From Candidatus Latescibacterota bacterium (GTDB lineage Bacteria; Latescibacterota; UBA2968), in the NCBI GenBank assembly GCA_965208125.1, contig OZ242320.1, positions 5,632,001 through 5,696,000 on the forward strand: a stretch of DNA of 64,000 nt, given 5' to 3'. The notes under the pieces were generated by a model that saw only the letters and a list, made by a program, of their open reading frames with translations, was not told the DNA's origin and searched no databases. Below are positions 33,678-62,861 of the stretch, one piece after another. The position numbers and the translations under genes were made by a program. Position 1 is the first letter of the stretch; the number at the start of each line of letters is the position of its first letter.

Positions 33678-33695
33678 CTACTGCTCTAACATGAC

Positions 33696-40238: not shown

Positions 40239-40270
40239 CACGCAACCTTCAGCAAAAGGAGAACTCTCAG

Positions 40271-42403: not shown

Positions 42404-42434
42404 AACAATTTCAATAGGAAAAGAGATTATTGCC

Positions 42435-44351: not shown

Positions 44352-44473
44352 TGAGCAAGTCCGCCGATTTCGCGGGACTTTAGCGAAGAGACATGCTATT
44401 CTCGCGCATCTGATACTTCTTTTGAGCGAGAAGCCTCGCGACACTCAGCCTTCAGAGCAAGGAGGGTGCTCAC

Positions 44474-46474: not shown

Positions 46475-46523
46475 GCAATCCGCAGATTTCGCAGGAACCG
46501 GGCAAGGGCAGAGGAACAAACTC

Positions 46524-47849: not shown

Positions 47850-47983
47850 AATTGGCCTATCTGTGTATCCACGCCTTTAGATAATATGTATGGGGATGAT
47901 AGGATAGTTTTGGTAGGCGTCTTAAGTGCTTTTTGAGTTCCAATAGTTTTAAAACGGCATCTTAACAGTAAAAGAGATCCTCC

Positions 47984-49648
47984 ATGAAATGCTTAAAAAA
48001 GAATACTCTTCTTCGCACCTTTACAACTGCGTTGAGCGCGTGCTTTTTTGTGTTGATATTCTTCACCTCTGTCAGCTATGCATCGCCCGAATATATAGTG
48101 CGGATAATCTACTTTGTTCCAAGCGACCGCACGCCCCAGAAAGACATAGACACACAACTGGATAAGCTGATAAAAGAAGCACAGCAGTTTTGTGCAGATC
48201 TGATGGAAAGCCACGGATTTGATAGAAAAACATTTAGACTTGAAACCGACGCGACCGGAAAGGTTGTGGTGCATCACGTGAACGGAAAATTCAACGATGC
48301 ATATTATCAGAGTCCATCCACTTCAGTAGCCTGGAGGGAAATCAATGAACAGTTTGATATGTCGAAAAATATCTATCTCACCGCGATAGATATCAGTAGC
48401 GAAGTCCTTAGTGGTAAAGCGTGTGGTCGAGGGAGTGGAGGAAGCCATAATGGACGGGTACTCATGCCCGCCTCAGGTCGTTGTTTTCACCTCGGTCTTA
48501 TGAACCATGAACTCGGACATGCCTTTGGCTTGAAACACGATTTTCGCCCCCGCACTACCCCACCCTCATTTACTTTCACCGACAACGAACCAATGCTCAC
48601 CTCTTTCTGTGCTGCTGAATGGTGGGATGCCCATCGCTACTTCAACCCAACCCAAATCGCCTTCGATGAACCCACAATGGTTGAGATGTTCTCCCCAAGT
48701 CCCGCCTCTTCACCGTATGCTATCCGCCTTCAATTTGAGATATCTGACCTTGATGGACTCCATCAGGCACAGTTGGTGAATGCCTCAGGATTATTAATCG
48801 ATTATAAGCGATTAAACGGCAAAAGCAACACCGTTGAATTTGTAGTAACCACCTACATAGCATCCCTCATTAAGAGTTTCGTAACCCTTAGAGTTATGGA
48901 TGTACATGGCAACATCAGAAACCAGAGGTTTCCAATTGATATTACCTCCCTGCTACCTCCGTCTGAAGTTGTGTCTATACCAGACCTAAATTTAGCAGCG
49001 GCGGTCCGGGAAACCCTCGGATTAACACCCGGGGGTACTATTACACAACTGGATATGCTGAGATTCGGAATAGTAAATGATAAAAGGAGTTTTAATGCTT
49101 CCGGTCGCCAGATAACTGACCTTACTGGACTTAAATATACAATGAATACACTGAGGACTTTAGTGATTAGGCACAATCAAATTAGCGATGTAAGTCCACT
49201 CGAGGAGCTAGTAAATCTTGAAAATTTAAATCTCGTTTCCAATCAGATTACCGATGTAAGTCCACTCGCAAAGTTGACGAATTTACGCATATTAGACCTT
49301 AAAAACAATCAGATTACCGATGTAAGTCCGCTCGCAGGGTTGGTAAATCTACAATTTTTATGGCTTAGGGGGAATCCAATTGCGGATATGTCCCCTCTTC
49401 ACAAACTCCTGCGTCAGAATTCTAATTTGAAAATAGATATTGATATCGGTGATGTGCCGCCTACGCCCGACTTTGATGGCGATGGTATTGTTGGTGTTCC
49501 CGACTTTTTGCTATTTGTGGAACAGTTCGGGTTAAGTCGTGGCGATGTGGGATATAACACGCGGTACGATCTGGATGGCGATGGGACAATTGGTGTTAGC
49601 GATTTTCTGATCTTTATGGATGCCTTTGGCAAAGAAGGGACTGGGTGA
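47984..49648 (+). CDS. Secreted metzincin-type zinc protease + internalin-like LRRs + dockerin-like module
   Basis: HELGHAFGLKH; NQI(S/T)DVSPL..L.NL..L.L repeats; PDFDGDGIVGVPDFL. Confidence 0.88.
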   Translation: MKCLKKNTLLRTFTTALSACFFVLIFFTSVSYASPEYIVRIIYFVPSDRTPQKDIDTQLDKLIKEAQQFCADLMESHGFDRKTFRLETDATGKVVVHHVNGKFNDAYYQSPSTSVAWREINEQFDMSKNIYLTAIDISSEVLSGKACGRGSGGSHNGRVLMPASGRCFHLGLMNHELGHAFGLKHDFRPRTTPPSFTFTDNEPMLTSFCAAEWWDAHRYFNPTQIAFDEPTMVEMFSPSPASSPYAIRLQFEISDLDGLHQAQLVNASGLLIDYKRLNGKSNTVEFVVTTYIASLIKSFVTLRVMDVHGNIRNQRFPIDITSLLPPSEVVSIPDLNLAAAVRETLGLTPGGTITQLDMLRFGIVNDKRSFNASGRQITDLTGLKYTMNTLRTLVIRHNQISDVSPLEELVNLENLNLVSNQITDVSPLAKLTNLRILDLKNNQITDVSPLAGLVNLQFLWLRGNPIADMSPLHKLLRQNSNLKIDIDIGDVPPTPDFDGDGIVGVPDFLLFVEQFGLSRGDVGYNTRYDLDGDGTIGVSDFLIFMDAFGKEGTG

Positions 49649-49806: not shown

Positions 49807-51258
49807 TTGATGCGCTCATTTTTATTTTTTCTTCCTTTGTGTGTCTTTGTCTTCTGTCAGTTGGGCATCCCCAAGAACGCGCATACCTCAACTTCGGTGG
49901 CTAAGCCTGACAGTCTTTACAAGCACGATCCCTACGATATATCGCAAGCCAGAGTTACCGACAGTACGGATGTCTATGTTACAAAAACTTCAAAAGTGAA
50001 ATATCTCTTGCGATCCCCCCGGTATATCTTGCTGACGATGGTCTATCCTTTGGAGAAAATCGCCCTTCAAGTAGAGTACGCAAAACTGTGGATTCGTTAC
50101 TATAAATTTTTCACCAATAAAGCGGGTACATTTGGTCTTTTCCCGCACGGGCAATTGGGAGGGGAAACGGGCACAGGGGTTGGGGTGCGTCTTTTCCATA
50201 CCAATATCCAGGGGCGCAAAAACGCATTGACTGCACACTATATCTATTCGGGCGAGCAGGGGCAATTTTGCGAAGGTCTGTATATTGACCCCAATCTATT
50301 GGGTGCAGGGCTCATTTGGAAAATTCAGGGGGGATATTTGCAAACAAAAAATAGAAATGCCAATATAAACGGCGCAATAGATGACGACGAGTCGAGGCTT
50401 TTTGAATTCAAAAAAGTTGATGTTGAGACCTCTGTTGAATGGCGTTTGAAAACGGATGAGGTCGCGTCTATAGTGCCGCAGTTTAAAATGGTGGGCAGGA
50501 TTGGGTTTTCACAGCGCGATTTTATGCCTGTATTGGGTGAATTGCAACCGCTTTCCGACCCGGGATCATCACCACAGGCGCGTCTGGTTAAGGGGTTGGG
50601 CACAAAATTCAAATTTTATCGCATTGGACTTCAGGTGACGTATGATGACCGCGATTATAAAAAACCAGTTCGCCAGCTTTCTCATCCACCCAATTATCGT
50701 TTTCCAGGCAGGATGGTTACACAACTTGGAGATCAGTTTTATTTCGCGCGAGATATTGGCTTTCCCGAACGCGGTGGATTTATCACTTTAGAAGGCGACT
50801 GGGTGACAGGCCCTGATCGCATTGCGTTCTACAAGATACGCGCCGAAGCTGCCCGTTATATCACGCTGTTTTGGAAGAACCGCATTCTGGTTCTGCACGC
50901 ACGGGTGGATAAAGTGCGGTCAGTGGGGGATGGATTTGTTCCTTATACCGAGTTGATTCAATTGGGCGGCAATGAATCGGCACGCGGATACACGCGCGGT
51001 TATTTTCGCGGACAGGGTGCATTGCAATTTAATGTGGAGTATCGATATCCAATATGGGATTATTCGAATATGTTTTTGTTTTGGGATGAAGGACAAATTT
51101 TCGACCATTTTGGCGATTTGAGGTGGGGAGGGTTCCATTCTTCATGGGGTGGAGGCATTGCATTTCGCACGGAGGCCGATTTGCTCGGCAAAATTAAAAT
51201 TGGGCATAGTACTGCCAATCGTTTCCTCATCGGATTTACAATGAATCAGGCATTTTAG
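49807..51258 (+). CDS. Omp85/BamA-TamA family outer membrane barrel
   Basis: Signal peptide; YDDRD..PERG, LGGNESARGYTRGYFRG, NVEYRYPIW, WGGGIAF, C-terminal QAF. Confidence 0.8.
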   Translation: MMRSFLFFLPLCVFVFCQLGIPKNAHTSTSVAKPDSLYKHDPYDISQARVTDSTDVYVTKTSKVKYLLRSPRYILLTMVYPLEKIALQVEYAKLWIRYYKFFTNKAGTFGLFPHGQLGGETGTGVGVRLFHTNIQGRKNALTAHYIYSGEQGQFCEGLYIDPNLLGAGLIWKIQGGYLQTKNRNANINGAIDDDESRLFEFKKVDVETSVEWRLKTDEVASIVPQFKMVGRIGFSQRDFMPVLGELQPLSDPGSSPQARLVKGLGTKFKFYRIGLQVTYDDRDYKKPVRQLSHPPNYRFPGRMVTQLGDQFYFARDIGFPERGGFITLEGDWVTGPDRIAFYKIRAEAARYITLFWKNRILVLHARVDKVRSVGDGFVPYTELIQLGGNESARGYTRGYFRGQGALQFNVEYRYPIWDYSNMFLFWDEGQIFDHFGDLRWGGFHSSWGGGIAFRTEADLLGKIKIGHSTANRFLIGFTMNQAF

Positions 51259-51281
51259 AAGACGCGGGGAAGACAGTCTTT

Positions 51282-52961
51282 ATGAAAAAGGATTTAAGTA
51301 AATTGTGGGTATGGATGCTTATGGCCTGTGTTGCTGCCGAGGCTGAAGCGATCGACCGTCATTTGTCAACTGCGCCAATCAAGTGGTTTGATCCCGATAA
51401 TCGCAGTATTGCGCAACCCAAAGTAATTAAAAGGAATCTGATATGGGACATGGTCGATCACTCTTTTGTTTATCCAATGACTAAGAAACTGGATTTGGGA
51501 AGGAGTGCGCGGCGGGTCGGGAATATTCTGAATATTGCGCCATCTCGTCAGGCAGATAATGTCAATGTGTTGGATGAAGTACCCAATTCATCTTGGTACA
51601 CGAATCGGCATTTTCTTGTGCGGATGGATGCGGCAGCGTTGGCTGAAGGGCCTGGACACGCGTATCCTGATACGAGCGGTTCTTGGGAGATTATATCGGG
51701 AAAATTAGAGGGCCAGGCACCTGAGCTTACAATTCGGGACGCAAAAGAGGATGTTTATTTTTTGAAGTTTGACGCAAAAGGTTATGAGGAGTTGGCGACA
51801 ACTGCCGAGGTTGTATCGACAAAAATTCTGTATGCTGCGGGCTATCATGTGCCGCAAAATTCCGTTGTTTTTTTTCGCGCCGAATGGCTTACCATCGGTC
51901 CTGATGCAAAGGTATCTGATGATGAGGGAAGGCGCAGGGACCTGACGGATACATACTTGCAAAATGTACTGTCTTCTATTGAGAAGCAAGCCAACGGGTA
52001 TATCCGGTGCCTGGCAAGCAAGAGATTAACGGGTATTCCTCTCGGTGTTTTTGATTTTCACAGTCGGCGGAAAGACGATCCCAATGATCGCGTGAAACAC
52101 CAGCATCGAAGGGAGTTACGGGGGTTGCGAGCGATCTCTTCGTGGATCAATGATGTAGATCGACGTGCAGCCAACACCCTGAATATGTTTGTGACTGATG
52201 AACAGGGACGTCACTATATCAAACACTATTTGATCGATATGGACGCGACTTTGGGTAGTAATTCAGTGCGGCCTCACACGCCCAGGTCAGGAAATGAGTA
52301 TTTTGTCGATTTTCGCTATATTGTCCCATCAGTTTTGGGGCTGGGGCTGTATCGAAAGGCGTGGGAAGATGCAAAGCCCATACATTTTCCATCAATTGGT
52401 TATTTGGAGAGCGATGTATTTTCGCCCAGGCGGTGGGTTACCAATTATCCCAATCCGGCTTTTCAGCGGTGTACAAATCGCGATGGGTACTGGGGAGCAA
52501 AAATCGCAATGGCGTTTAGCGATGCGGATTTGGCAGCTATTGTGAAGACGGGGCATTTGAGCGACAAGAAGGCTGAAGAGAGACTCATTCAACTTTTGAT
52601 TGCACGCCGCGATAAGGTGGGCGATTACTGGTTTCGACGCATAAATCCGCTAGATCGCTTTTGGATTGACAGACGAGGATTGCATTTTGAGGATCTGGCG
52701 ATTGTGGGAAATCTGGCTACTGAAGCAAAGACCCGGTATTTTTATCAATTTTTGAGTCGCGATGGAAAGGCGCAGGGTGCTGTGCGTCAACTCGATACGT
52801 CAGGGCACATACCCATACCACGCGATTTGCCGGATGGACAATATTACGGGATAGAGATTCGGACCGTGAGGTCTGGATGGGCAGATAAATACGTTCGGGT
52901 TTATTTTTTTGTTTGGAATGTCGGGCTATATCAGATTGTACGGGTTGATCGGCAGGAGTAG
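51282..52961 (+). CDS. Secreted hypothetical protein with a predicted atypical kinase fold
   Basis: Signal peptide AEA; GKLEGQAP loop, YFLKFD (Lys), TTAE (Glu), NDVDRRAAN, YLIDMD. Confidence 0.65.
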   Translation: MKKDLSKLWVWMLMACVAAEAEAIDRHLSTAPIKWFDPDNRSIAQPKVIKRNLIWDMVDHSFVYPMTKKLDLGRSARRVGNILNIAPSRQADNVNVLDEVPNSSWYTNRHFLVRMDAAALAEGPGHAYPDTSGSWEIISGKLEGQAPELTIRDAKEDVYFLKFDAKGYEELATTAEVVSTKILYAAGYHVPQNSVVFFRAEWLTIGPDAKVSDDEGRRRDLTDTYLQNVLSSIEKQANGYIRCLASKRLTGIPLGVFDFHSRRKDDPNDRVKHQHRRELRGLRAISSWINDVDRRAANTLNMFVTDEQGRHYIKHYLIDMDATLGSNSVRPHTPRSGNEYFVDFRYIVPSVLGLGLYRKAWEDAKPIHFPSIGYLESDVFSPRRWVTNYPNPAFQRCTNRDGYWGAKIAMAFSDADLAAIVKTGHLSDKKAEERLIQLLIARRDKVGDYWFRRINPLDRFWIDRRGLHFEDLAIVGNLATEAKTRYFYQFLSRDGKAQGAVRQLDTSGHIPIPRDLPDGQYYGIEIRTVRSGWADKYVRVYFFVWNVGLYQIVRVDRQE

Positions 52962-52989
52962 TTTCAATTCTTTCAAAGCCGAGAATCAG

Positions 52990-55230
52990 ATGAGAAACAA
53001 AAAGTTATACGCAACAAAATGCGGGATAGTTCAAAGTCTATTTGTTTTTTTTCTGTGTTTCGGTTTTGTCCTGTTCAGCACGCTTCCTTCTTTTGCAAAA
53101 CAGAAGCCCCGAGTCGCACTGGTGCTCAGTGGAGGAGGCGCGCGTGGAGGGGCACATATCGGCGTGCTGCGCGTACTCGAGCGCGAAGGTATTCCCATTG
53201 ATTTGATCGTGGGCGTGAGTTATGGGGCACTGGTGGGAGGACTGTACGCTGCCGGATACACTGTTGATAATGTCGAACGCATTATTGTAGGAACAGATTG
53301 GTGGGAAATAACCAACAATCACCCCAACCGCCGTCTGTCGAATTTGAATCGCAAACCAATAGCTGATCGCCAGATGCTTGCATTGCGCCTCGATAAATTC
53401 GATCTAAAATTGCCTTATGGAGTTTTTGCCGGGCAAAAAATTCAGCATTTTCTCAATCAATTGACCCTTGGCGCAATTTATCGGGCGCGAAACGATTTTG
53501 ATCGGCTGCCAACGCCTTTTCGTGCAATTGCAACAGATATTTTATCTGGCGAACAGGTCGTGATAAAAAATGGCTCACTCGGCACGGCAATCAGAGCGAG
53601 TATTTCTGTTCCCGGGGTGTTTGCCCCGATAAGTACAGAACAAACCCATCTCGTAGATGGCGGTATTGTCAATAACTTGCCTGTAGATGTCGCATTAGAC
53701 GCCGGGGCTGATTTGGTTATTGCCGTGGATTGTGCCACACCTTTGCGCACTCAAAAGCACGAAGTTGAAGATATTATCGACGTCATCGATCAGGCTGTTA
53801 GTTTTCGAATTGAAGAAAAAAAAATTGCAAATCGAAAACGCGCCCATGTGCTGATCATGCCCGATTTAAAAAAATTTGATGGAGGCAATTTTAATCTGTC
53901 GTACACCTTGATTCCAATTGGCGAAAAAGAAGCCGAAAAACATCTGGATGCGATCTGGAAGGCTCTGCAAAAGCTCGGCATTTCAAAACGCGTTGAAAAG
54001 TCGAGACCGTCGATATTGCCAGATAATTTTGATTTCAGAACCTGGGTGGATATACCATCGGATATTGTGATTGATCGGGTGCGGATTGAGGGTTTAGAGC
54101 GCTATTCACAAGAGAAATTTACATCGCGGTTAGAAAAGTTCATCAACAAGCCGATATCGTTTCGGAAACTGGAAAACGAATCTGGCCGGTTCTATGCGAC
54201 CGGATTATTTCAAACAGTAGATTACGAGGTTATCTACCATGAAGACTATACCGAATTGGTTTTTCAGGTGCTTGAAAACCCCCCCAGTGAGTTGAAAATA
54301 GGACTTCATTACGACAATGATTTTGGGGTTGCAGCACTGACCGAGTTTGCACATCAAAATGCTTATGGCCCCGTAGCAGAGTTTTATTTTCGCGGCCTGT
54401 TGGGCAATTTGAAGCTCGCTGAAATGGATTTAATTTTTCGCTCATCCAGGCGCCTGGGTTTCTTCGGGAAGATTCGAGGGTGGAATCAAGACCGGTTGTA
54501 TTTTCAAAATGGGCAACGCCAGGACACATATAACGAGAAGCGTTTTCGCGCGCGATTGGGCATGCAGGTTTTGTTCCACAGTTGGGGAGGTTTTAAAGTG
54601 GGGTATCAAGTTGAGCATGTCCGCATTCGCGATGCGGACAGTTCAATAGGCAATGCGTCTAAAGATCTGCCCGCCTTGTGGTTATCTACAGGTATTGACA
54701 CCCGAGACGATGCGTTTTTGACAAGACATGGCATCTATTTTCAAACGCAAGCAAAATGGGTTCATCGAACATTTTCACATAAGCAGGTGCAAACACAACT
54801 CGCGTACTTCACCAGCCCCCATCCGCAATTGAGTGTGGGCCTCTGGTCTCACGGAGGCTATATGACACAGCCTGCACCGATTTATGAACACTTCGCATTA
54901 GGTGGTGGAGGACACTTTAGTAACGCAGCATTGCGCGTTGTCGGTCTCAAACGCGACAAACTGAGAGCTTTTAGGTTCGTCTCGGCGGGCATTTCTATTT
55001 GGAGCCACATGAAATTTTGGGGATCCATACCGCTCAGTGCTGTTGGAATTTTCTATCAGGGCGGTCTGTACAATAAGTCTTCCAATCCGGATCAGCCCAA
55101 TACCCGTATCCACGGTTTTGGTATTGGTGGTTATATCAGCACGACGTTTTTAGGCCCCATTCGCATTGATATTGTGAGCACAGAAGAAAAGGATATCCGG
55201 ATTTATACCGCAGTCGGATTTGCGTTTTGA
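52990..55230 (+). CDS. Patatin-like phospholipase + POTRA + Omp85 barrel (PlpD / type Vd-like)
   Basis: LSGGGARGGAHIG, GVSYG, VDGG; I..V.IEG..YATGLF POTRA; DTRDD, GPIRID, VGFAF. Confidence 0.9.
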   Translation: MRNKKLYATKCGIVQSLFVFFLCFGFVLFSTLPSFAKQKPRVALVLSGGGARGGAHIGVLRVLEREGIPIDLIVGVSYGALVGGLYAAGYTVDNVERIIVGTDWWEITNNHPNRRLSNLNRKPIADRQMLALRLDKFDLKLPYGVFAGQKIQHFLNQLTLGAIYRARNDFDRLPTPFRAIATDILSGEQVVIKNGSLGTAIRASISVPGVFAPISTEQTHLVDGGIVNNLPVDVALDAGADLVIAVDCATPLRTQKHEVEDIIDVIDQAVSFRIEEKKIANRKRAHVLIMPDLKKFDGGNFNLSYTLIPIGEKEAEKHLDAIWKALQKLGISKRVEKSRPSILPDNFDFRTWVDIPSDIVIDRVRIEGLERYSQEKFTSRLEKFINKPISFRKLENESGRFYATGLFQTVDYEVIYHEDYTELVFQVLENPPSELKIGLHYDNDFGVAALTEFAHQNAYGPVAEFYFRGLLGNLKLAEMDLIFRSSRRLGFFGKIRGWNQDRLYFQNGQRQDTYNEKRFRARLGMQVLFHSWGGFKVGYQVEHVRIRDADSSIGNASKDLPALWLSTGIDTRDDAFLTRHGIYFQTQAKWVHRTFSHKQVQTQLAYFTSPHPQLSVGLWSHGGYMTQPAPIYEHFALGGGGHFSNAALRVVGLKRDKLRAFRFVSAGISIWSHMKFWGSIPLSAVGIFYQGGLYNKSSNPDQPNTRIHGFGIGGYISTTFLGPIRIDIVSTEEKDIRIYTAVGFAF

Positions 55231-55279
55231 TGCATATTCATCTGTCTTATCCAAATCACCTTGAAACGAAAGGAAAAGC

Positions 55280-57997
55280 ATGATATTTTCCAGATGGAAC
55301 GCTATTTTATTCTTCCTGGTGCTCGCTTTTTCCGTTCCGATAGAATCCACATCTGAAGAGGATTCCCCTGCTCCAGGATATAGGATTCACCGATCTATTC
55401 CTCCACCGGGTGCTAAGACCCACATGGTGGTTCCAGGAGAAAGATTCCGAGCCAGCGGGTTTAAACGCTGGTTCTACGGCAACAATAACCGGGACCTCTG
55501 GACCACTCCTATCGAGGTTGCAGTCCTCGACCTCAACAGCGTAGGAGGTGGTTTGACGCCGCTTCGCACTGGCGGATTCGGGCAGTCCATCTCGCTTCAC
55601 TTTACAGGGGAAGACGGCCGCCGCTATACAGTTCGTTCCCTGGATAAAGATCCCACCAAAAGAATATGGGACGAACTCAAGGATACCATTGTCGATGACG
55701 TCCTTCAGGACTTGATCAGCGCGCTTTTACCAACAGGGGCACTCGTAGCTGACCCGCTGATGGAAGCCACTGGTATTCTCCATTCCAAACACACGCTCGT
55801 AGTTATTCCGGATGATCCGAGACTGGGGGAATACCGCGAAGAGTTTGCCGGCCTTATCGGAACGCTACAAGAACACCCGTCTGAAGGACCGGACGATACG
55901 CCCGGCTTTGCGGGTTCCCGGAGGATCAGCGGAACAGAGAGACTGTGGGAACACCTTGAAGAAAGTCCTTGCAACCGCGTCGATGCCCGTGCCTATCTAA
56001 AGGCGAAACTAATGGATCTTTTCATCGGCGATAAGGACCGCCATTACGGCCAGTGGAGATGGGCGCAATTCCCCGATGGCGATTGTTATACATGGCTTCC
56101 AATACCCGAGGACCGCGACCAGGCTTTTATCGGCTTCGAGGGATTTGCTATGGCAATGGCGCGCAAAAGGCTCCCCAGGCAAATCACGTTTGGAGACAAG
56201 TATCCAAGCCTGGTGGGCCTATCGACTACTGGTTGGGAGATGGACCGCGAGTTTCTGGTCGAACTCAATAAGACCGCGTGGGATTCAGTAGTAACAGCGT
56301 TTCGCAGAGACTTACCGGATTCGGTCATTGAGGATGCCGTGCGGAGGCTCCCACCACCGTATTACAAAATGATTGGGGAAGCTCTTACACAAGCCCTCAA
56401 ATCAAGGCGGGACGCATTGCCCGATTTTGCCAGTAGATACTATGAATTGATTACCCGCCAGGTCGAAATCCAGGCGACCGATAAGGATGAGTACGCCCAT
56501 TGTGAACACCTGACGAATGGTGACCTCGCAGTTCGTATCGGTCTGATAGAAGGTCCCGGAGGAGAAAGAAAAACACCCTATTTCCAAAGGACATTCCACC
56601 CTCAGGAAACCCGAGAAGTCCGAATATACCTCCGGGGCGGAGATGACCGCGCGGAAATATCGGGGACAAAGGGACAGATTGTCGTTCGCATTGATGGCGG
56701 AGGTGGGGATGACACACTTACAAACGCATCCCAATCTGGCGCCTCAAAAACCCGGTTTTATGATTATCGCGGAAAAAATCAGTTCGCCAAAGGCGAGGGG
56801 GCGAAAATCGACGAGCGACCCTACAAGCGTCCTCCCGCACGGCTTCTCCGTGCAAGGTATGCACTGGACTGGGGTGGACAGGCTATTACCGCTCCGATTA
56901 TCAGGGTAAACCCGGATATGGATGTATTCTTGGGGGCGACCTACCATCGGCAGCATTTCGGGTATCGAAAAGATCCTTTCTCTTCGCAACATTTTTTCAA
57001 GATCGGGCTGGCGAAAGACAATGATCTCAAGGGAATCAAGCCCTTTGCCTCCTATACCGGCAATTTTCGCGAATTCATGCGCGACTTCGACGCGAGAATC
57101 TACTTAAAATACTCCGGATTCCAGACAATCCGGTTTAACGGATTTGGTAACAAAACGGAAATTCCTGAGCCGTCTTCCTTCTATAAGGTGGAACAAAGAC
57201 ATTTCGTTTTCGCACCTGCCCTCGAATTTCGAGCGGGAGATCATAAAGAAGATATGCCTCATGTTGGTATGGGATCGCTCCGCTCGAAATTAACCATTGA
57301 CTTTGGACCGATTATCAAGTATTCAAACACCCCCCTCAGTTCCAATCGGGAAAAATATATCGGTTCGCTCGATCAACCACTTTACGGTACGGATTCCTTC
57401 GGCCAGGTAGGCGCACTGGGTGAAGTCGTGTACGACACGCGCAACAGTTTAGGGTATCCCACTCAGGGGGTCAGGGTCAGGGTTGCCGGAGACATCTATC
57501 CGGGCGTCTGGGATGTAGAATCGACCTTTGGCAGCATAAATGGGGAAGCCAGTACTTACCTGACTGCCCCTATACCGACTACCCCGACCCTTGCCTTAAG
57601 AGCAGGTGGCAAGAAGGTATGGGGAACCTTTCCCTTTCACGAAAGTGCCTTTCTGGGCGGGTCCGGTTTTGTCGGTAGTGGCATATCCAGTGGCAATTTG
57701 CGTGGTTTCCGGAAAAACAGGTTCGCTGGAGAAACTGCGCTGTATGGAAATTCCGAACTGCGACTGGTTCTGACCAAAATCAAGCTTCTGGTATCGGGAG
57801 AATTCGGATTGTTCGGTACGGGTGATGCCGGACGGGTAATTTATGACGGAGATCCGGGCAATGCTGATAAATGGCACACCAGTATCGGAGGTGGATTCTG
57901 GCTGTCTTTTCTCAAGCGCCAGCAGACCTTTAGCGCGGCAGTCGTAAAAGGCGATGACCTGACGGGCGTATATCTGCGCGCTGGTTTTATGTTTTAG
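55280..57997 (+). CDS. Kinase-like N-terminal domain fused to an Omp85-type barrel
   Basis: GGFGQS, YTVRS, GDKDRHYGQW, PEDRDQAF; barrel motifs YDTRN..PTQG, NLRGFRKNRFAG, ELR, C-terminal GFMF. Confidence 0.75.
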   Translation: MIFSRWNAILFFLVLAFSVPIESTSEEDSPAPGYRIHRSIPPPGAKTHMVVPGERFRASGFKRWFYGNNNRDLWTTPIEVAVLDLNSVGGGLTPLRTGGFGQSISLHFTGEDGRRYTVRSLDKDPTKRIWDELKDTIVDDVLQDLISALLPTGALVADPLMEATGILHSKHTLVVIPDDPRLGEYREEFAGLIGTLQEHPSEGPDDTPGFAGSRRISGTERLWEHLEESPCNRVDARAYLKAKLMDLFIGDKDRHYGQWRWAQFPDGDCYTWLPIPEDRDQAFIGFEGFAMAMARKRLPRQITFGDKYPSLVGLSTTGWEMDREFLVELNKTAWDSVVTAFRRDLPDSVIEDAVRRLPPPYYKMIGEALTQALKSRRDALPDFASRYYELITRQVEIQATDKDEYAHCEHLTNGDLAVRIGLIEGPGGERKTPYFQRTFHPQETREVRIYLRGGDDRAEISGTKGQIVVRIDGGGGDDTLTNASQSGASKTRFYDYRGKNQFAKGEGAKIDERPYKRPPARLLRARYALDWGGQAITAPIIRVNPDMDVFLGATYHRQHFGYRKDPFSSQHFFKIGLAKDNDLKGIKPFASYTGNFREFMRDFDARIYLKYSGFQTIRFNGFGNKTEIPEPSSFYKVEQRHFVFAPALEFRAGDHKEDMPHVGMGSLRSKLTIDFGPIIKYSNTPLSSNREKYIGSLDQPLYGTDSFGQVGALGEVVYDTRNSLGYPTQGVRVRVAGDIYPGVWDVESTFGSINGEASTYLTAPIPTTPTLALRAGGKKVWGTFPFHESAFLGGSGFVGSGISSGNLRGFRKNRFAGETALYGNSELRLVLTKIKLLVSGEFGLFGTGDAGRVIYDGDPGNADKWHTSIGGGFWLSFLKRQQTFSAAVVKGDDLTGVYLRAGFMF

Positions 57998-58000
57998 CTC

Positions 58001-58927
58001 ATGAAGGAGGATGCGATGCTCAACAACATCATCATACGTCTCGCCATTTACTATATCACCTGGCTTTTGATTCTCAACGCGATTTTTCACATATTCCCCG
58101 AAATTCTCTATTACGTCGCCCAGGAGCGCGAACGCATCTTTGTAGGATCATCCCTTGACTCCGGGGCCGATCCGCCCATTCCGCTTGGAAACATCCAAGA
58201 AGGGGTAAACCGGCTCGCCGATCCGGAACACACGATTCCAGTTGTAGTCGCTTTGGTACTGGCTTTCGGGGTTACCCTCCCAATTACCTGGGTATATGCC
58301 TGGACGCATCCACCCAAGAAATACAGTCAAGCCTTTGTACAAACTCTGCTCGTGATACCTGTCGCGATCTCACTGGTTGTTTTTTTGGTGAAGGGTAGTC
58401 TTGCCCTTGCGTTCAGTCTGGCGGGTATCGTGGCCGCCGTCACCTTTCGGCTCTCACTCAAATCGACCATAGAGGGCGTGTACATGTTTATGGTCATCGG
58501 GATAGGGCTGGCGGCTGGCACCCAGCTTACGACTGTGGCCTACCTCGCATCGCTGGCTTTCGTCACCATAACACTGGGCGTGTGGAAAATCAATTATGGC
58601 GCGCAGCCACCAGTACTATCCGGCTGGAGAATTGTTTCACCTGATCACTCGGCCCAGACCTCTGGGACAAAGGCTACTGGGAATTCTTATGATGCCCGGA
58701 TTGAAGTACACACAACGAAGGTCGAAACAGCTCAAAAAGCAACCGCTCAAATCCTGAAATCCGGGACCAAACAGTGGCAAGTAGCAGATGTGATCGAGAA
58801 AGAAGATGGAACGGCCATCGTTGTATATGATATTTTGTTAAAACAATCCGTCGCTCTGCCTATCCTCATCCGGGATATTGAAAAAAGCAAAAAAAGTATC
58901 AAAAACGCAACGCTGACAAGAGTTTAA
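58001..58927 (+). CDS. DUF4956 family inner membrane protein
   Basis: SLALAFSLAGIVAAVTFR..K..YMFMVIGIGLAAG signature; start may be 58016. Confidence 0.8.
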   Translation: MKEDAMLNNIIIRLAIYYITWLLILNAIFHIFPEILYYVAQERERIFVGSSLDSGADPPIPLGNIQEGVNRLADPEHTIPVVVALVLAFGVTLPITWVYAWTHPPKKYSQAFVQTLLVIPVAISLVVFLVKGSLALAFSLAGIVAAVTFRLSLKSTIEGVYMFMVIGIGLAAGTQLTTVAYLASLAFVTITLGVWKINYGAQPPVLSGWRIVSPDHSAQTSGTKATGNSYDARIEVHTTKVETAQKATAQILKSGTKQWQVADVIEKEDGTAIVVYDILLKQSVALPILIRDIEKSKKSIKNATLTRV

Positions 58928-58998
58928 AATTGGTATTCTCAAAGCCTCCCTGTCACCAGAGAGATCAGGTAGGCACACTCATAACGGTATAATTACAA

Positions 58999-60165
58999 AT
59001 GAAGAATCACACAGATAAATTTCTGCTGGGCTTTCTTGGTTTTGGCATTTTTCTCTACCTGTTGTCGATGGGCTATGATCCATCTTCAGATTTTAGTGAA
59101 AATTCGTCAAACGCAGATCCAGATACTTCTATTTTAGACACTTCTACCGTCCTTCCTTTGGCGGACACGACGGCGGTATTAATATCTCCTGAAAGCTATA
59201 CCCTGAACGAAGAGACCGCTTCAGACACTTCTATCGTCTCCCCTTTGGCGGATACAATGGCTGTATTAGACTATGAAGAGGATTCATCCTCAGATTTTAG
59301 TAGAAATCCGTCAGACACAGTTCCAGATACTCCGACCAACCGCCCTTTGGCGGATACAATGGCAGCAGTACAAAGGAAAATATCTCTCGAAAGCTATACA
59401 CTAAACGAAGAGACCGCGACACACTGGAAGCTGTCCGAGCATCTTGAGGAAATCTCTGGTTTGGCAATGACCAGAGACAACCGGCTCCTGGCGCACAATG
59501 ATGAAAGAGGGATCATTTTCGAGATCGATTATCAGAATGGATCAATAGCAAAAGCATTCCAACTGACGGACATGAAGAACCCGGTAGCCAGTGATTTTGA
59601 GGGCATTGCAACAATTGACAACCAGATCTATCTGGTCACGAGTTCAGGGCGACTATACGAGTGTCGTGAGGGAACTACTGGCGAGTCCGTTCTCTTCAAT
59701 GTCTATACAACTGGCATCGGCAGAGACTGCGAAATTGAGGGCCTGGCATACGACGAGAGCAAGCGGGCACTCTTACTGATGTGCAAGGACGCTCGCAGTG
59801 CAGACATGGAGGGAAAGTTAGCAGTATATCACTGGTCAATTGACGAGAAACAGCTAAGAAAAGATGCACATACTGTAATACCTGTCGTGGAATTCTCCCG
59901 ACACATCAAAGGGAAAAATTTCCAGCCATCGGGAATCGAGCGACACCCAATATCGGGGAATTACTTTATCGTAGCTGCTCGTCAGGGAGCTATCGCGGAG
60001 ATCACGCCGGGTGGCCAGGTTGTTGCGGTCAGAGAGTTTCCCGCCCAGTGGCATCGTCAGGCTGAAGGTATTACCTTCGCCGCGGACGGCACGCTAATCG
60101 TTTCCGATGAAGGCGCAGGGAAGAGAGCGAGACTAACCCTTTATCCGGTCTCGGATAGTCAATAA
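58999..60165 (+). CDS. Membrane-anchored SdiA-regulated (YjiK-like) beta-propeller protein with acidic repeat stalk
   Basis: N-terminal TM segment; LEEISGL, HNDE, DFEGIA, EIEGLAYD, PSGI, QAEGITF, VSDEG. Confidence 0.8.
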   Translation: MKNHTDKFLLGFLGFGIFLYLLSMGYDPSSDFSENSSNADPDTSILDTSTVLPLADTTAVLISPESYTLNEETASDTSIVSPLADTMAVLDYEEDSSSDFSRNPSDTVPDTPTNRPLADTMAAVQRKISLESYTLNEETATHWKLSEHLEEISGLAMTRDNRLLAHNDERGIIFEIDYQNGSIAKAFQLTDMKNPVASDFEGIATIDNQIYLVTSSGRLYECREGTTGESVLFNVYTTGIGRDCEIEGLAYDESKRALLLMCKDARSADMEGKLAVYHWSIDEKQLRKDAHTVIPVVEFSRHIKGKNFQPSGIERHPISGNYFIVAARQGAIAEITPGGQVVAVREFPAQWHRQAEGITFAADGTLIVSDEGAGKRARLTLYPVSDSQ

Positions 60166-60217: not shown

Positions 60218-61705
60218 ATGGCACATTCAAAACCCAACCTGCTCTACATTCACTCCGACCAGCACGACCCTTATGTGACGGGCTGTTATGGCGACAAAGT
60301 CGTACAAACCCCCCATCTCGACAGCCTCGCGGCAAATGGCGTTGTATTTGAAAACTGCTATTGCCCCTCGCCGATATGCGTACCTTCGCGCATGTCCATG
60401 CTATCGGGGCGCTATCCCTTTGAAAACGAAGTGTGGACAAACTCCCATATTCTCAACTCGAGCATTCCCACATTTGCCCATGCAATGGGCGCGGGAGGTT
60501 ATGACCCCGTGCTCGTCGGACGCATGCATTCCAATGGACCGGATCAGCTACACGGATATGCCCAGCGTCTCGTCGGCGATCACGGGCCCAATCATCCCGG
60601 TGGTGGCGGCGTCAACCACGGAATGCTTTCGGGCACAGCAGGTCCCGCCCGCGTCAGCCTGACGAAATCGGGCATTGGACAAAGCGCGTACCAGGTACAC
60701 GACGAAGACGTAACCGCAGCAACCGTTGCATACCTCGACCGTATAGGCGTAAAAAAACGCGCGGGACAACCTTCAGAGCCTTTCTCTCTAACCGTTGGGT
60801 ATATGCTCCCCCACCAGCCATTTGTCGCGCGCCGCGCCGACTACGAACGTTACGATGGTCGCGTACCACCCCCAACTGTCTCTATCCCCTTCTCCGACGA
60901 CCTGCATCCCCACATCAAACAATGGCGCGAACGCTGCGGTATTACAACCGTCACAGAAGCCGAAATCCACCGCGCGCGCACCGCATACTGGGCACTCGTT
61001 GACCGCATGGATTACATGATCGGGCAGATCCTCACAGCCCTCCGTCAAAACGATTTGATCAACGACACCCTCGTCATTTACATGTCAGACCACGGCGAAC
61101 AAGCCGGCGAACACGGCCTGTGGTGGAAACAAACCTTTTACGAACACTCCGCCAAAGTACCCGCCATACTCTCCTGGCCCGGTCACCTGCCCGAAGGCAA
61201 GTGCTTTGACAACGTCATCTCTTCTGTCGATCTCAACGCCACCATGATCAACGCCCTGCAATGTCCCGAACTCCCCCACTCTCGCGGACGATCACTCCTG
61301 CCGCTTATGCGCGGCGAAAACACATCCTGGGACAACCTCGCCTTCTCCGAATTTTGTCAGGACAGAGCAGGCGGTGGCGGACCCTTCTCCGCCGAAGGCG
61401 TGTACCAGCGCATGATTCGGCAGGACGAATGGAAATTCAATTACTACCACAACCAGCCCTGTCAACTCTTCAACCTGCAAGAAGACCCCAACGAATTGCA
61501 CGACCGCGCAAACGACCCGTCCTGTCAAAGCCTGATCAAAAATTTCACCGCCCGCATCCTCGACGGCTGGGATCCCGACGCCATCGCCTCTCAACTCGCC
61601 GCCCGAAACAGGGACACCCGCATCCTCTCGGCATGGGCGCGCCACACCAAACCCGCAGATACGATCCGCTGGGACTTGCGACCCGAAATGGATTATCTGG
61701 AATAG
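60218..61705 (+). CDS. Sulfatase (choline-sulfatase-like)
   Basis: PNLLYIHSDQH, CVPSR (formylglycine motif), GRMH, PH, SDHGE..GEHGLWWK. Confidence 0.93.
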   Translation: MAHSKPNLLYIHSDQHDPYVTGCYGDKVVQTPHLDSLAANGVVFENCYCPSPICVPSRMSMLSGRYPFENEVWTNSHILNSSIPTFAHAMGAGGYDPVLVGRMHSNGPDQLHGYAQRLVGDHGPNHPGGGGVNHGMLSGTAGPARVSLTKSGIGQSAYQVHDEDVTAATVAYLDRIGVKKRAGQPSEPFSLTVGYMLPHQPFVARRADYERYDGRVPPPTVSIPFSDDLHPHIKQWRERCGITTVTEAEIHRARTAYWALVDRMDYMIGQILTALRQNDLINDTLVIYMSDHGEQAGEHGLWWKQTFYEHSAKVPAILSWPGHLPEGKCFDNVISSVDLNATMINALQCPELPHSRGRSLLPLMRGENTSWDNLAFSEFCQDRAGGGGPFSAEGVYQRMIRQDEWKFNYYHNQPCQLFNLQEDPNELHDRANDPSCQSLIKNFTARILDGWDPDAIASQLAARNRDTRILSAWARHTKPADTIRWDLRPEMDYLE

Positions 61706-61718
61706 TTGGCGGACGCCT

Positions 61719-62861
61719 ATGAAAACCGAACTTACCAGACTCGATTTGGCCTGCTGGGGCGGGTTTATGATGTTTGCCACCAGCGGTGTCGTCACCCCAA
61801 TATGCCTACCCGAAATATCCAGCGCCCTGTCCATCTCCCTCTCTGAAAGCGGCGGCCTGGAAACCGCGCGAACATGTCTTTTGCTCGTCGTCTTAATCAT
61901 GTCCGGCATCCTCGCGCGCAAATGGGGCAAAAAACATTTTGTGACCTGGGGACAATATCTCCTCGCCATCGGCCTTCTCATGATCAGCTATGCCGATAGC
62001 TACCCTGTGCTCATCCTGTCCCTCATGGTCACTGGCATAGGCGGTGGATTCACCGAAGCACTCATCAATCCCCTCGTCATCGACATTCACCCCAGAGACT
62101 CGGGCAAATACCTCAACATCACCAACGCATTTTACCCCGTCGGCGTCCTGGTCTCCGCGCTCCTCTTTGGCGAACTCTTGACCCTCGGATATTCCTGGCG
62201 GCTCGTATTTCGCATTGCCGCAGCGGGCGCGCTTTCCATGGGCATCTTATTCCACCTATCGCGCTTTCCCATACCCGTAGCAGATCAGCAATCATCTAAA
62301 CACCTGATTGCACAAATCCTCAAAACGCCCAAATTTTGGCTCTTTGCCATCGCCATATTTTTGGGCGCAGGTATCGAAGCGGCATTCACATTCTGGAGCC
62401 GCAGCTATGTGGAAACCTACCTCCAGGACATGCCCCGCGCCGGTGCAATCGCAGTTGTCCTCTTTGCGATCACAATGGCTCTGGGCCGCTTGCTTTCCGC
62501 AAAATTGTCCCAGATAATCAGCCTGAAAACCCTGATGCTCGGTTCCGCTATCCTCGGTGTCGTCGTCAGCAGCGGCATTCCCTTCTCCGAAAATCTGATC
62601 GGATTTTACATCCTGCTCCTTTTCGCTGGATTTGCAACTGCCTGCTTCTGGCCCACCATACTCGCCGAAGCCGCGGAACACCTGTCCTTTGACGCCACCA
62701 TGCTCTTTGTCGTACTCGCCTGCTTTGGCATTGCCGGATTTGGCCTCATCCCCTGGATCATGGGCGTGATCGGAGATAGCGCTGGCCTGAAAGCGGGTTT
62801 CTCTATTATACCCGGTCTCTTTATTGGCTTGATCATCGTACTCGCCATCACAAAGCGTTAA
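61719..62861 (+). CDS. MFS transporter (fucose permease-like)
   Basis: About 12 hydrophobic segments; GIGGGFTE..INP, GIE, MALGRL. Confidence 0.88.
   Translation: MKTELTRLDLACWGGFMMFATSGVVTPICLPEISSALSISLSESGGLETARTCLLLVVLIMSGILARKWGKKHFVTWGQYLLAIGLLMISYADSYPVLILSLMVTGIGGGFTEALINPLVIDIHPRDSGKYLNITNAFYPVGVLVSALLFGELLTLGYSWRLVFRIAAAGALSMGILFHLSRFPIPVADQQSSKHLIAQILKTPKFWLFAIAIFLGAGIEAAFTFWSRSYVETYLQDMPRAGAIAVVLFAITMALGRLLSAKLSQIISLKTLMLGSAILGVVVSSGIPFSENLIGFYILLLFAGFATACFWPTILAEAAEHLSFDATMLFVVLACFGIAGFGLIPWIMGVIGDSAGLKAGFSIIPGLFIGLIIVLAITKR

Follow-up and report, generated by a model that had tools for sequence, protein, structure and literature searches.

Does the row of six genes at positions 49807 to 60165 of the window (the whole 64,000-nucleotide stretch of DNA analyzed) encode a single trans-envelope phosphorylation machine, as the original prediction proposed, or a junction of separate parts? 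All six open reading frames lie on the plus strand, and the predicted tight spacing was confirmed, with gaps of 3 to 71 bp. From G1 to G6 the gaps are 23, 28, 49, 3, and 71 bp, the second being 28 bp if G3 starts at the ATG at 52990; an alternative TTG start at 52909 would overlap G2. The features are as follows.

49807..51258, plus strand: G1 (module A), POTRA-less Omp85-family barrel of 483 aa with a short N-terminal extension predicted to grip G2
51282..52961, plus strand: G2 (module A), exported atypical kinase-fold protein of 559 aa, eroding in the six-gene clade
52236..52244, plus strand: metal-binding motif D319-M-D321 of G2; Gly is the third residue in 109/109 homologues
52962..52989, no strand: junction of modules A and B; G3 is the first cluster gene in relatives without G1-G2
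52990..55230, plus strand: G3 (optional module B member), PlpD-type patatin-POTRA-Omp85 protein of 746 aa from ATG 52990
55280..57997, plus strand: G4 (module B core), signal peptide, kinase-fold domain, middle region, and Omp85 barrel; 905 aa
58001..58927, plus strand: G5 (module B), DUF4956 inner-membrane protein of 308 aa with several hydrophobic segments
58999..60165, plus strand: G6 (module B), membrane anchor, repetitive linker, and SdiA-regulated/YjiK-type beta-propeller; 388 aa

Spacing alone sets no unit boundary, because the co-oriented run continues past 60165 with a sulfatase gene that starts 52 bp further on in the same orientation. The promoter scan was at chance level (14 sites versus 14.5 expected), and none of the 18 terminator-like sites (11.9 expected; SD, 3.4) was informative. 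In four RNA runs (shares, 0.05 to 0.10), the matching sequences were all contigs of relatives, and G1-G2 was covered in one run only; one 14-kb contig covers G3 to past an MFS gene, so DNA carry-over is a possible source. Values of dN/dS against relatives were 0.09 to 0.35 across all six genes. Signal peptides and the G6 anchor were assigned from hydropathy and by eye; the G2 signal is weakly hydrophobic, with zero hydropathy windows above the threshold. The genes upstream of the row encode eukaryote-like repeat proteins (Pfam).

The distribution of the genes answers the question of unity. The six-gene row occurs only in a single clade, which comprises six genomes. G3, G5, and G6 stand beside a G2 relative in 3/80 loci, all three from the window's own clade, and G2 lies beside G4 in 0/79 distant loci. 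In seven same-genus genomes examined, G3 to G6 are kept with no G1-G2 upstream, and module B occurs without G1-G2 and without an NTT (ATP/ADP translocase) gene. Module A is conserved across phyla, with G1 immediately preceding G2 in 69 of the 78 loci with enough sequence. Thus, the row brings together two separate modules within one lineage and is not one conserved six-gene machine. Among the 79 G4 loci, 6 are NTT linked and 28 are DUF4956 or ppk1 linked; the separation of the two groups (0 overlaps versus ∼2 expected) is by itself not beyond chance, and many contigs are short. The proposal that the row exports or modifies the tagged proteins encoded upstream also fell away, as the tag motif matches 34 times, spread across 23 sites genome-wide, and the tagged-protein array is not conserved as a neighbor.

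It could still be argued that module A has since been rewired to DUF4956, which would now serve both kinases, making the six genes a single integrated machine across the envelope. Tight co-orientation and retention of the row in one six-genome clade fit this reading, which we consider quite unlikely given the seven genomes with G3 to G6 alone and the missing pairing in distant loci.

The kinase folds themselves, and their placement outside the cytoplasm, were predicted correctly. G2 was modeled as a kinase domain (residues ∼128 to 454) followed by an FnIII-like domain (∼452 to 547; pLDDT 88, pTM 0.89), and the fold search returned CtkA (Z = 13.2), Fam20 (12.5), CotH (11.9), and PI4K2alpha (11.0). 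G2 aligned with 3akj over 222 residues (Z = 13.2, rmsd 4.1) and with 5xom over 262 residues (Z = 12.5, rmsd 4.3). The G4 kinase-fold domain (residues ∼42 to 397; pLDDT 96, pTM 0.94) retrieved CotH (Z = 14.3) and PI4K2alpha (14.0) within a range, including CtkA, of 12.9 to 14.3, and aligned with 5jda over 252 residues (Z = 14.3, rmsd 4.2). With Foldseek, G4 matched CtkA (E = 3.7e-6); Foldseek alone gave no match with an E value of <0.001 for the whole G2 model. The resemblance to CotH, Fam20, and PI4K2 lies in structure and not in family profiles: G2 has no Pfam family, and neither G2 nor G4 has any Pfam or NCBIfam kinase match (including CotH, Fam20C, HipA, and PI3/4-kinase). PDB sequence searches with G2 and G4 returned nothing meaningful, and Atlas scores to kinase-family clusters (0.77 to 0.81) serve as leads only. 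Taken together, the models support bilobal atypical-kinase folds of the CtkA/HipA/CotH/Fam20/PI4K2 group for both G2 and the G4 N-domain. A profile comparison of the two families gave a probability of 3%, so their kinship is one of fold only.

Residues K162, D291, D293, N298, and D319 of G2 are invariant (110 rows) and supply a conserved Lys, catalytic Asp, Asn, and metal-binding Asp (K162, D293, N298, and D319). In G4, K123, D251, R254, D278, and D280 occur in 141/141 homologues and D253 in 138; the corresponding set is K123, D253, Q258, and D278, with Q258 at the Asn position (Gln in 126/141, Asn in 14/141). We take these residue roles from analogy with known kinase motifs, not from residue-level superposition. 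Fold and catalytic motif order are shared with Fam20C/Fam20B, CtkA, HipA, and PI4K2alpha, while identity to them is 7 to 14% with no Pfam match, and the proteins here are bacterial and outer-membrane anchored. Fam20 kinases act outside the cytosol using imported ATP.

G1 has Omp85 as its sole Pfam domain (E = 3.7e-12), with an invariant lid motif, R393-G394 (43 alignment rows), and fits the noNterm type, a barrel without a recognized N-terminal domain. The G1-G2 complex prediction scored 0.75, against 0.00 for the best of three controls, with contact agreement between runs of at least 85% and partner pLDDT of at least 86. A mark of 0.75 was reached by 116/157 solved and 2/215 mismatched pairs, counts that are only rough with our own alignments. 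The predicted interface on G1 comprises residues 38 to 100, 292 to 299, 356 to 359, and 412 to 424; the predicted docking site of G2 is on the barrel's periplasmic side. In nature, the two parts also occur fused, as a lipoprotein kinase followed by a barrel (P0392, on four contigs). Weaker is P0393, a 1,007-aa frame that runs from an NTT into a G2-type kinase; it comes from one record only, on a 4.9-kb contig, and its kinase retains its own signal peptide, so read-through is possible. Two candidate barrel-kinase fusions were rejected, one (L085) with the barrel in a different frame and the other (L094) consisting of two genes joined by a run of N.

The usual companion of module A is an NTT carrier. 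NTT genes occur in 50/80 module A loci, lying at most 3 kb downstream in 39/74 (NTT, NTT-HEAT, cNMP, and phosphoesterase neighbors were identified by Pfam and also by PDB 9j3n/9j3j). Within the phylum, an NTT exceeds 300 bits against the operon-type profile in 22/151 genomes, each of which contains G2, adjacent in 19; the 114 genomes without G2 score at most 154 bits. At least 8 of these 22 genomes had contributed a row to the profile. As an independent test, 8 of 9 genomes with a fetched G2 locus lacking an NTT, and with no profile row, have an NTT elsewhere at ≥370 bits. Counting against NTT dependence, genome G119, which is 98% complete, encodes a G2 with intact motifs and yielded no match to the operon-type NTT profile. 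In the window genome no operon-type NTT was found beside or with G1-G2; one distant NTT, a stand-alone gene that scores 131 bits and lies 2.9 Mb off, could substitute for it.

Characterized NTTs import nucleotides (PMC5381601), which counts against ATP export and invites a scavenging and sensing scheme. Here the barrel would admit nucleotides or phosphorylated compounds, the kinase fold bind them, phosphoesterases trim them, and the NTT import them, with NTT-HEAT, a cNMP-binding protein, and a two-component pair reporting supply. Consistent with this, phosphoesterase, cNMP, response-regulator, and histidine-kinase genes flank module A, and ppk1, a SixA-type phosphatase, and cyclases flank module B. 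We regard scavenging as unlikely: outside the six-gene clade, 83/86 G2-type rows keep the complete catalytic set (Lys, Asp, Asn, metal Asp, and Gly), a degree of conservation not required of a protein that only binds; G2 is predicted to cap the barrel's periplasmic face; and module B manages without an NTT.

Module B is organized around G4, whose barrel matches Pfam Omp85 (E = 7e-5) and NCBIfam Omp85_fam (E = 1e-19), both below their own cutoffs. DUF4956 lies beside G4 in 38/39 phylum loci, and within the genus it occurs in the same 13/19 genomes as whole G4 and in 0 of the other 6. G5 (Pfam DUF4956, E = 5.5e-12) is the only DUF4956 protein found in the genome; its profile found no solved relative. 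DUF4956 had been predicted as the inner-membrane link of the whole row; it is a constant G4 partner in the phylum, whereas the usual partner of G1-G2 is the NTT carrier. G5 is thus a candidate donor route or regulator for G4. In two genera, G4 is present in 14/15 and 12/22 genomes, with an NTT match in none. The expected links to metallophosphoesterase (27/79) and ppk1 (19/79) were found among the distant-locus neighbors of the G4 family. No ppk1 was found in the 39 phylum module B loci, and that of the window genome lies elsewhere, away from the row. G6, present in 30/39 phylum and 19/79 distant loci, is SdiA-regulated/phytase-like by Pfam (YjiK 3qqz, E = 3e-8) and combines an N-terminal anchor, a long Ser/Asp/Thr-rich linker, and a propeller with invariant acidic residues.

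G3 occurs in 20/39 phylum module B loci and 1/79 distant loci. It matches Pfam patatin (E = 7e-34), Omp85, and, weakly, POTRA (E = 0.03, below cutoff), and it aligns with the PlpD patatin domain 5fqu (E = 4.7e-62). Its GGGARG, GVSYG, and DGG motifs are intact, giving the PlpD build (glycine loop, GxSxG, DGG, then POTRA, then Omp85 barrel) with the POTRA match weak. The type Vd secretion label for G3 is not supported, since the PlpD enzyme domain stays in the periplasm (PMC11116518). PlpD-type proteins form homodimers with phospholipase A1 activity in the periplasm. POTRA domains number zero in G1, zero in G4, and one, weak, in G3, compared with three to five in BamA/TamA.

These observations bear on a type V-like effector secretion scheme, in which the barrels would export kinase and lipase to the surface or a host. 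The secreted Helicobacter pylori kinase CtkA is the best structural match of G2 and the best Foldseek match of G4, barrel and partner adjoin as in two-partner secretion, and eukaryote-like repeat proteins are encoded upstream. Nevertheless, we consider secretion very unlikely, as G1 and G4 lack POTRA, the family consensus has a lipoprotein signal, stable periplasmic-face docking is predicted, and PlpD itself is not secreted (PMC11116518). The modules are also found in environmental genomes, among them Balneolaceae and Rhodothermales, and the tie to an inner-membrane NTT would be left unexplained.

Within the six-gene clade, G2 is changing. DxG has become DxD in 6/6 genomes, the metal Asp has become Asn in 2/6, and an IS110 insertion breaks the gene in 2/6. 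The six genomes form one clade (support 100/100), and the erosion is one evolutionary event. The window G2 retains K162, D293, N298, and D319. In this NTT-less clade, dN/dS (0.15 to 0.28 for G1, 0.18 to 0.24 for G2) is not clearly above that of G5 or G6; thus, G2 is not simply dead. By motif analogy, the G4 family carries Asp where G2 gained D321, so DxD need not abolish catalysis. Persistent purifying selection on G1 and G2, and a G2 D-M-D now like the D-R-D of the G4 family, would suit the integrated machine; the IS110-broken copies and lost metal Asp do not. The best reading is that in the window genome module B is intact-looking and module A orphaned, with G2 drifting toward a pseudokinase or a structural partner of G1. 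Active-site damage in a carrier-less module A is a hint, short of proof, that a phosphate donor is exported by some bacteria for phosphorylation between the membranes.

We judge it somewhat probable, then, that the row encodes periplasmic kinases anchored to Omp85 barrels and supplied with donor by either of two routes, with module B intact and module A orphaned. The barrel, for which POTRA would not be needed, would keep an atypical kinase attached on the periplasmic side, next to the inner leaflet of the outer membrane, and the phosphoryl donor would come from the cytoplasm by way of a partner in the inner membrane. Module A would be the split form, whose partner in other loci, an NTT antiporter, would send ATP out and return ADP and in which an often-present lipoprotein phosphoesterase would perform the reverse reaction. 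Module B would be the fused form; given the constant DUF4956 partner in the phylum and the frequency of ppk1 near distant loci, polyphosphate or a nucleotide through G5 is the most likely donor. G6 may act as a partner tethered in the periplasm by its membrane anchor, and G3 may be a periplasmic phospholipase that is optional to the module. For the substrate, our first guess, held at a little short of even confidence, is an inner-leaflet lipid of the outer membrane or a lipid-linked glycan; a protein is somewhat less expected, and a small molecule seems doubtful. The tools used show the folds, the conserved motifs, the linkage of genes, the division into two modules, the loss of the NTT, and the erosion of motifs, and they predict G1-G2 binding and its periplasmic side; we infer catalysis, donor identity, transport direction, G5 and G6 roles, and substrate. 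Overall, the original prediction stands in its kinase folds, their placement, and the G4 links, and not in the single machine, the G1-G2/DUF4956 link, the tagged-protein role, or the type Vd label.

Each part of this arrangement has known relatives. G3 shares the build and catalytic motifs of PlpD, and a barrel that keeps its enzyme in the periplasm near the inner leaflet fits G1-G2 and G4 as well (PMC11116518); unlike PlpD, the G2 and G4 folds need a phosphoryl donor, held to be absent from the periplasm. G1 resembles the POTRA-less noNterm barrels, and G4 has the Metallo build minus the N-terminal PF00149 phosphoesterase, types that are related (Heinz and Lithgow 2014, PMC4104836; PMC11358297). 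Two G4 relatives (L221 and L078) combine PF00149 with the kinase domain and barrel; in other loci, the phosphoesterase is a separate gene. The word "kinase" has zero occurrences in the main texts of PMC4104836 and PMC11358297; here, kinase folds form the Metallo middle domain and the partner of G1's noNterm type. The stand-alone NTT, NTT-HEAT fusion, and cNMP-binding gene that usually neighbor G1-G2 recall those of Major, Embley and Williams 2017 (PMC5381601), whose available text gives no function and no barrel or kinase link; the operon-type carriers are missing at the window locus. In Gram-positive pel loci, DUF4956 accompanies a polyphosphate polymerase and a CotH kinase (10.1101/768473), an arrangement shared here in that DUF4956 adjoins an extracytoplasmic atypical kinase with the same class of fold and, in many cases, an enzyme that makes polyphosphate. 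The kinase here is barrel fused and not CotH by profile, and relatives have PPK1; of the VTC-DUF4956-CotH cluster, the 96%-complete window genome yielded DUF4956 and neither VTC nor CotH genes (controls positive in 3 and 4 of 14).

Both barrel-kinase modules appear undescribed. A literature search found neither, with subscription journals largely outside its scope and supplementary gene tables (e.g., of PMC5381601 and PMC4104836) that could bear on novelty; PMC12993501 has zero occurrences of Omp85, kinase, and patatin. As a local rearrangement, the six-gene row is not in its own right the target for study. The prevailing view, noted in passing in PMC11116518, is that the periplasm lacks ATP; a kinase conserved there and equipped with its own supply of donor would therefore represent a new class of envelope chemistry, a bacterial counterpart of the Golgi kinases. 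If true, the clade would be a natural experiment in kinase decay after loss of an ATP carrier, offering a contrast unavailable from intact loci: an eroding kinase that lacks its NTT, next to one of the other type that is intact. Genetics is feasible, since module A with NTT is present in cultured strains (L080 and L084). We suggest tentatively, short of calling it probable, that many diderms run a periplasmic phosphorylation cycle on Omp85-anchored kinases fueled by ATP (NTT) or polyphosphate (DUF4956). Such a cycle would give a function to Metallo and some noNterm Omp85 proteins, to DUF4956, and to the NTT carriers of free-living bacteria, whose role is left open in PMC5381601, and it would make testable together the role of those carriers, the purpose of noNterm and Metallo barrels, and what DUF4956 transports.

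The six co-oriented genes at window positions 49807-60165 had been read as a single trans-envelope machine with two kinase folds. In general, the two kinase folds stood up to further analysis, while the single machine resolved into two modules. Module A consists of a barrel (G1) and a kinase (G2), usually with an ATP/ADP translocase (NTT), while module B consists of a kinase-barrel protein (G4), DUF4956 (G5), a propeller (G6), and an optional lipase (G3). All six open reading frames were confirmed, with intergenic gaps of 23, 28, 49, 3, and 71 bp in order from G1 to G6.

Genes of the row at window positions 49807-60165, with Pfam results
G1, + strand: barrel; Omp85
G2, + strand: kinase-fold protein; no family match
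G3, + strand: patatin-POTRA-barrel protein; patatin, weak POTRA, Omp85
G4, + strand: kinase-barrel protein; Omp85, below the cut-off
G5, + strand: DUF4956 protein; DUF4956
G6, + strand: propeller; SdiA-regulated/phytase-like

Each gene is single copy in the 5.75-Mb, 96%-complete genome, save for one 62-residue patatin fragment, and dN/dS was 0.09 to 0.35 across all six genes (pairwise, against same-genus relatives). Upstream, window positions 30321-49648 encode an array of secreted proteins of the WD40, FnIII/cadherin, NHL-like, and LRR types. Several bear a dockerin-like tag of paired EF-hands, whose pattern gave 34 matches at 23 genome places, 8 of them in this array. The patatin fragment, which has another tagged gene ∼2 kb away, lies in a frame (G000:C1:1733962-1734843, - strand) that opens with 62 residues at 81% identity to the G3 patatin domain, continues as unrelated sequence, and looks like a recombination remnant. 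The G6 linker (window 59080-59390) contains short internal repeats, differs in length among relatives, and carries four D-S/T-hydrophobic motifs that resemble the Bacteroidota O-glycosylation sequon. Downstream, a co-oriented sulfatase and MFS transporter follow (window 60218-62861); conservation after module B is limited to the genus.

Predicted models and structure comparison back the kinase folds of G2 and the G4 N-terminal domain. Scoring 8,000 candidates yielded 1,293 G2 relatives, and the G2 model (110 rows; pLDDT 88) matched CtkA (Z 13.2, rmsd 4.1, 222 aligned), Fam20 (Z 12.5), CotH (Z 11.9), and PI4K2alpha (Z 11.0), with residues 452-547 resembling FnIII domains. Foldseek ranked the same proteins first for G2, none at E < 0.001. 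The G4 domain has 2,765 relatives (50%-identity representatives), and its model (142 rows; pLDDT 96) matched CtkA (Foldseek E 3.7e-6), CotH (Z 14.3), and PI4K2alpha (Z 14.0). The Lys, D-x4-N/Q motif, and metal-binding Asp are kept in both proteins; we assign their catalytic roles by analogy with known motifs. The two families do not align with each other in profile comparison.

For module A, 545 GTDB loci of G2 relatives were confirmed and the 80 best were analyzed; these come from Latescibacterota, KSB1, Calditrichota, Rhodothermales, Balneolaceae, and other groups, with close relatives overrepresented and some loci sharing a genome. Carriers of module A include the cultured, non-pathogenic Aliifodinibius salipaludis (L080) and Halalkalibaculum sp. 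(L084), the latter having a G4-type protein in its genome as well. A G1-type barrel lay directly upstream of the G2 relative in 69 of the 78 loci with sufficient sequence. The next commonest neighbors were a stand-alone NTT/TLC ATP/ADP carrier or an NTT-HEAT fusion (50/80), followed by cNMP-binding genes (n = 17), phosphoesterases (n = 17), and response regulators (n = 12). Neighbor profiles were derived from these 80 loci themselves, with identities assigned via Pfam and PDB. The operon-type NTT, which travels with module A, exceeded 300 bits in 22 of 151 phylum genomes, at least 8 of which had contributed to the NTT profile; all 22 carry G2, adjacent in 19, and the 114 phylum genomes without G2 scored no higher than 154 bits. 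As a circularity check, NTT was sought elsewhere in the genomes of 9 of the 30 loci that lack it: 8 of the 9 encode an operon-type NTT at ≥370 bits, and the ninth has NTT-HEAT and a fragment. In six loci (L034, L043, L052, L054, L061, and L095), the first barrel-kinase pair is accompanied by another, divergent pair whose catalytic-loop sequence differs, which suggests two substrate classes.

The predicted complex of window G1 and G2 scored 0.75 (best control, 0.00), a mark reached by 116/157 solved and 2/215 mismatched pairs and roughly applicable here; contact agreement was at least 85% and partner pLDDT at least 86. On G1, the interface comprises the N-terminal extension together with residues 412-424. 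The latter follow the loop-6 lid motif and precede the FxDxG strand, which by Omp85 topology would probably place them at a periplasmic turn. A natural fusion (P0392; 981 aa, 4 contigs) places a lipoprotein kinase ahead of a barrel, sharing the build of G4; because this domain order is opposite to the gene order, it is not read-through. In a single record (P0393), one 1,007-aa frame covers both an NTT carrier and a kinase of the G2 type, as either a fusion or a read-through.

Module B was sampled as 39 hand-picked phylum loci, each with a whole G4 kinase domain, from a phylum in which 51/151 genomes match G4. The neighbors were G5 (n = 38), G6 (n = 30), G3 (n = 20), phosphoesterase (n = 4), and G2 (n = 2), with NTT and ppk1 absent from all 39. 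Among 79 distant metagenome loci (best of 585), phosphoesterase was found in 27, DUF4956 in 20, propeller in 19, ppk1 in 19 (11 alongside DUF4956), NTT in 6 (never alongside DUF4956 or ppk1), patatin in 1, and G2 in none. The anticipated phosphoesterase and ppk1 neighbors of G4 are borne out in the metagenome loci. Seven loci (L188, L201, L209, L218, L230, L234, and L239) share one row with DUF4956, a kinase-barrel gene, and a CYTH-PPK1 fusion of ∼1,060 aa, most with a phosphoesterase between the first two. Several G4 relatives (L206, L214, L220, L221, L226, L240, and L243) have as recurrent neighbors HD-domain plus Pycsar-type membrane effector genes, along with class III cyclases. Within the window's genus, DUF4956 occurs in exactly those 13/19 genomes bearing whole G4. 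Two genera with G4 in 14/15 and 12/22 genomes gave no NTT match at E 1e-10; module B can therefore do without NTT. The sole phylum locus with whole G4 but without DUF4956 belongs to a genome with five NTT matches (G036). Related genomes are not independent samples, and the separation of NTT-linked from DUF4956-linked loci is only suggestive.

The complete row occurs in G000 (the window's genome), G004, G006, G008, and G014, and was followed in G007 until the contig ends inside G5. That the six genes form one integrated machine is nevertheless improbable, since G3, G5, and G6 lie near a G2 relative in only 3/80 loci, all in the window's clade. The G2 proteins of the six genomes form one clade (support 100/100), sister to those of G010, G016, and G018. 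These three genomes retain G1-NTT-NTT-HEAT-cNMP-regulator, carry G2 in a displaced position, and give no G4 match, and the G016 protein has an intact D-M-G; G001 has a decayed remnant. None of the six genomes has an operon-type NTT; their only NTT is a 130- to 137-bit stand-alone gene common throughout the genus. In the window's genome, this stand-alone NTT/TLC carrier (420 aa) lies at G000:C1:2813997-2815259; it recurs in 20/20 genus genomes searched, unlinked to any kinase.

In this clade, G2 is eroded. The ordinary D-M-G metal-binding motif is replaced by D-M-D or N-M-D in 6/6 proteins (metal Asp to Asn in 2/6), Gly by Glu in the nucleotide-binding loop region in 5/6, and an IS110 element breaks the gene in 2/6. 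The ∼1.58-kb IS110-family element occupies the same codon in L258 (G004) and L260 (G006), which are not grouped in the G2 tree. Window G2 deviates at 19/192 highly conserved columns (median, 4), a deviation reached by 4/110 rows, itself included; outside the clade, 83/86 rows retain the complete motif set, and the remaining 3 have Ala or Ser instead of Gly. Counting against simple decay, dN/dS of G2 is still 0.18 to 0.24, the four main residues are intact in window G2, and G119 has an intact G2 where operon-type NTT was not found. Because the erosion after NTT loss is a single event, it supports, but does not establish, dependence of G2 on NTT.

Most simply, the barrel would be an anchor that perhaps also presents lipids, an arrangement argued for PlpD; the PlpD enzyme domain is periplasmic, and loss of PlpD alters phospholipids (PMC11116518). 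Among alternative readings, nucleotide scavenging and sensing is unlikely, and effector secretion seems very improbable. In module A, an antiporter running outward would deliver ATP and take ADP back, supplying the periplasmic kinase's donor. For module B, the candidate donor route is DUF4956, its sole constant partner in the inner membrane; in Gram-positive loci, it is reported together with polyphosphate polymerase and CotH kinase (10.1101/768473). This scheme is inferred as a whole, with a lipid as the favored substrate, given the predicted membrane-proximal docking, PI4K2-like fold, patatin neighbor, and CDP-lipid enzymes directly upstream of G4 in two loci (L144 and L145); a protein is somewhat less likely.

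The component parts belong to named families. In L078 and L221, a phosphoesterase is fused ahead of the kinase domain, a build matching the Metallo Omp85 subfamily of PMC4104836, whose main text makes no mention of a kinase. A literature search found no description of module A or module B. What the window adds is the contrast of the two modules side by side and the erosion of G2 following NTT loss.
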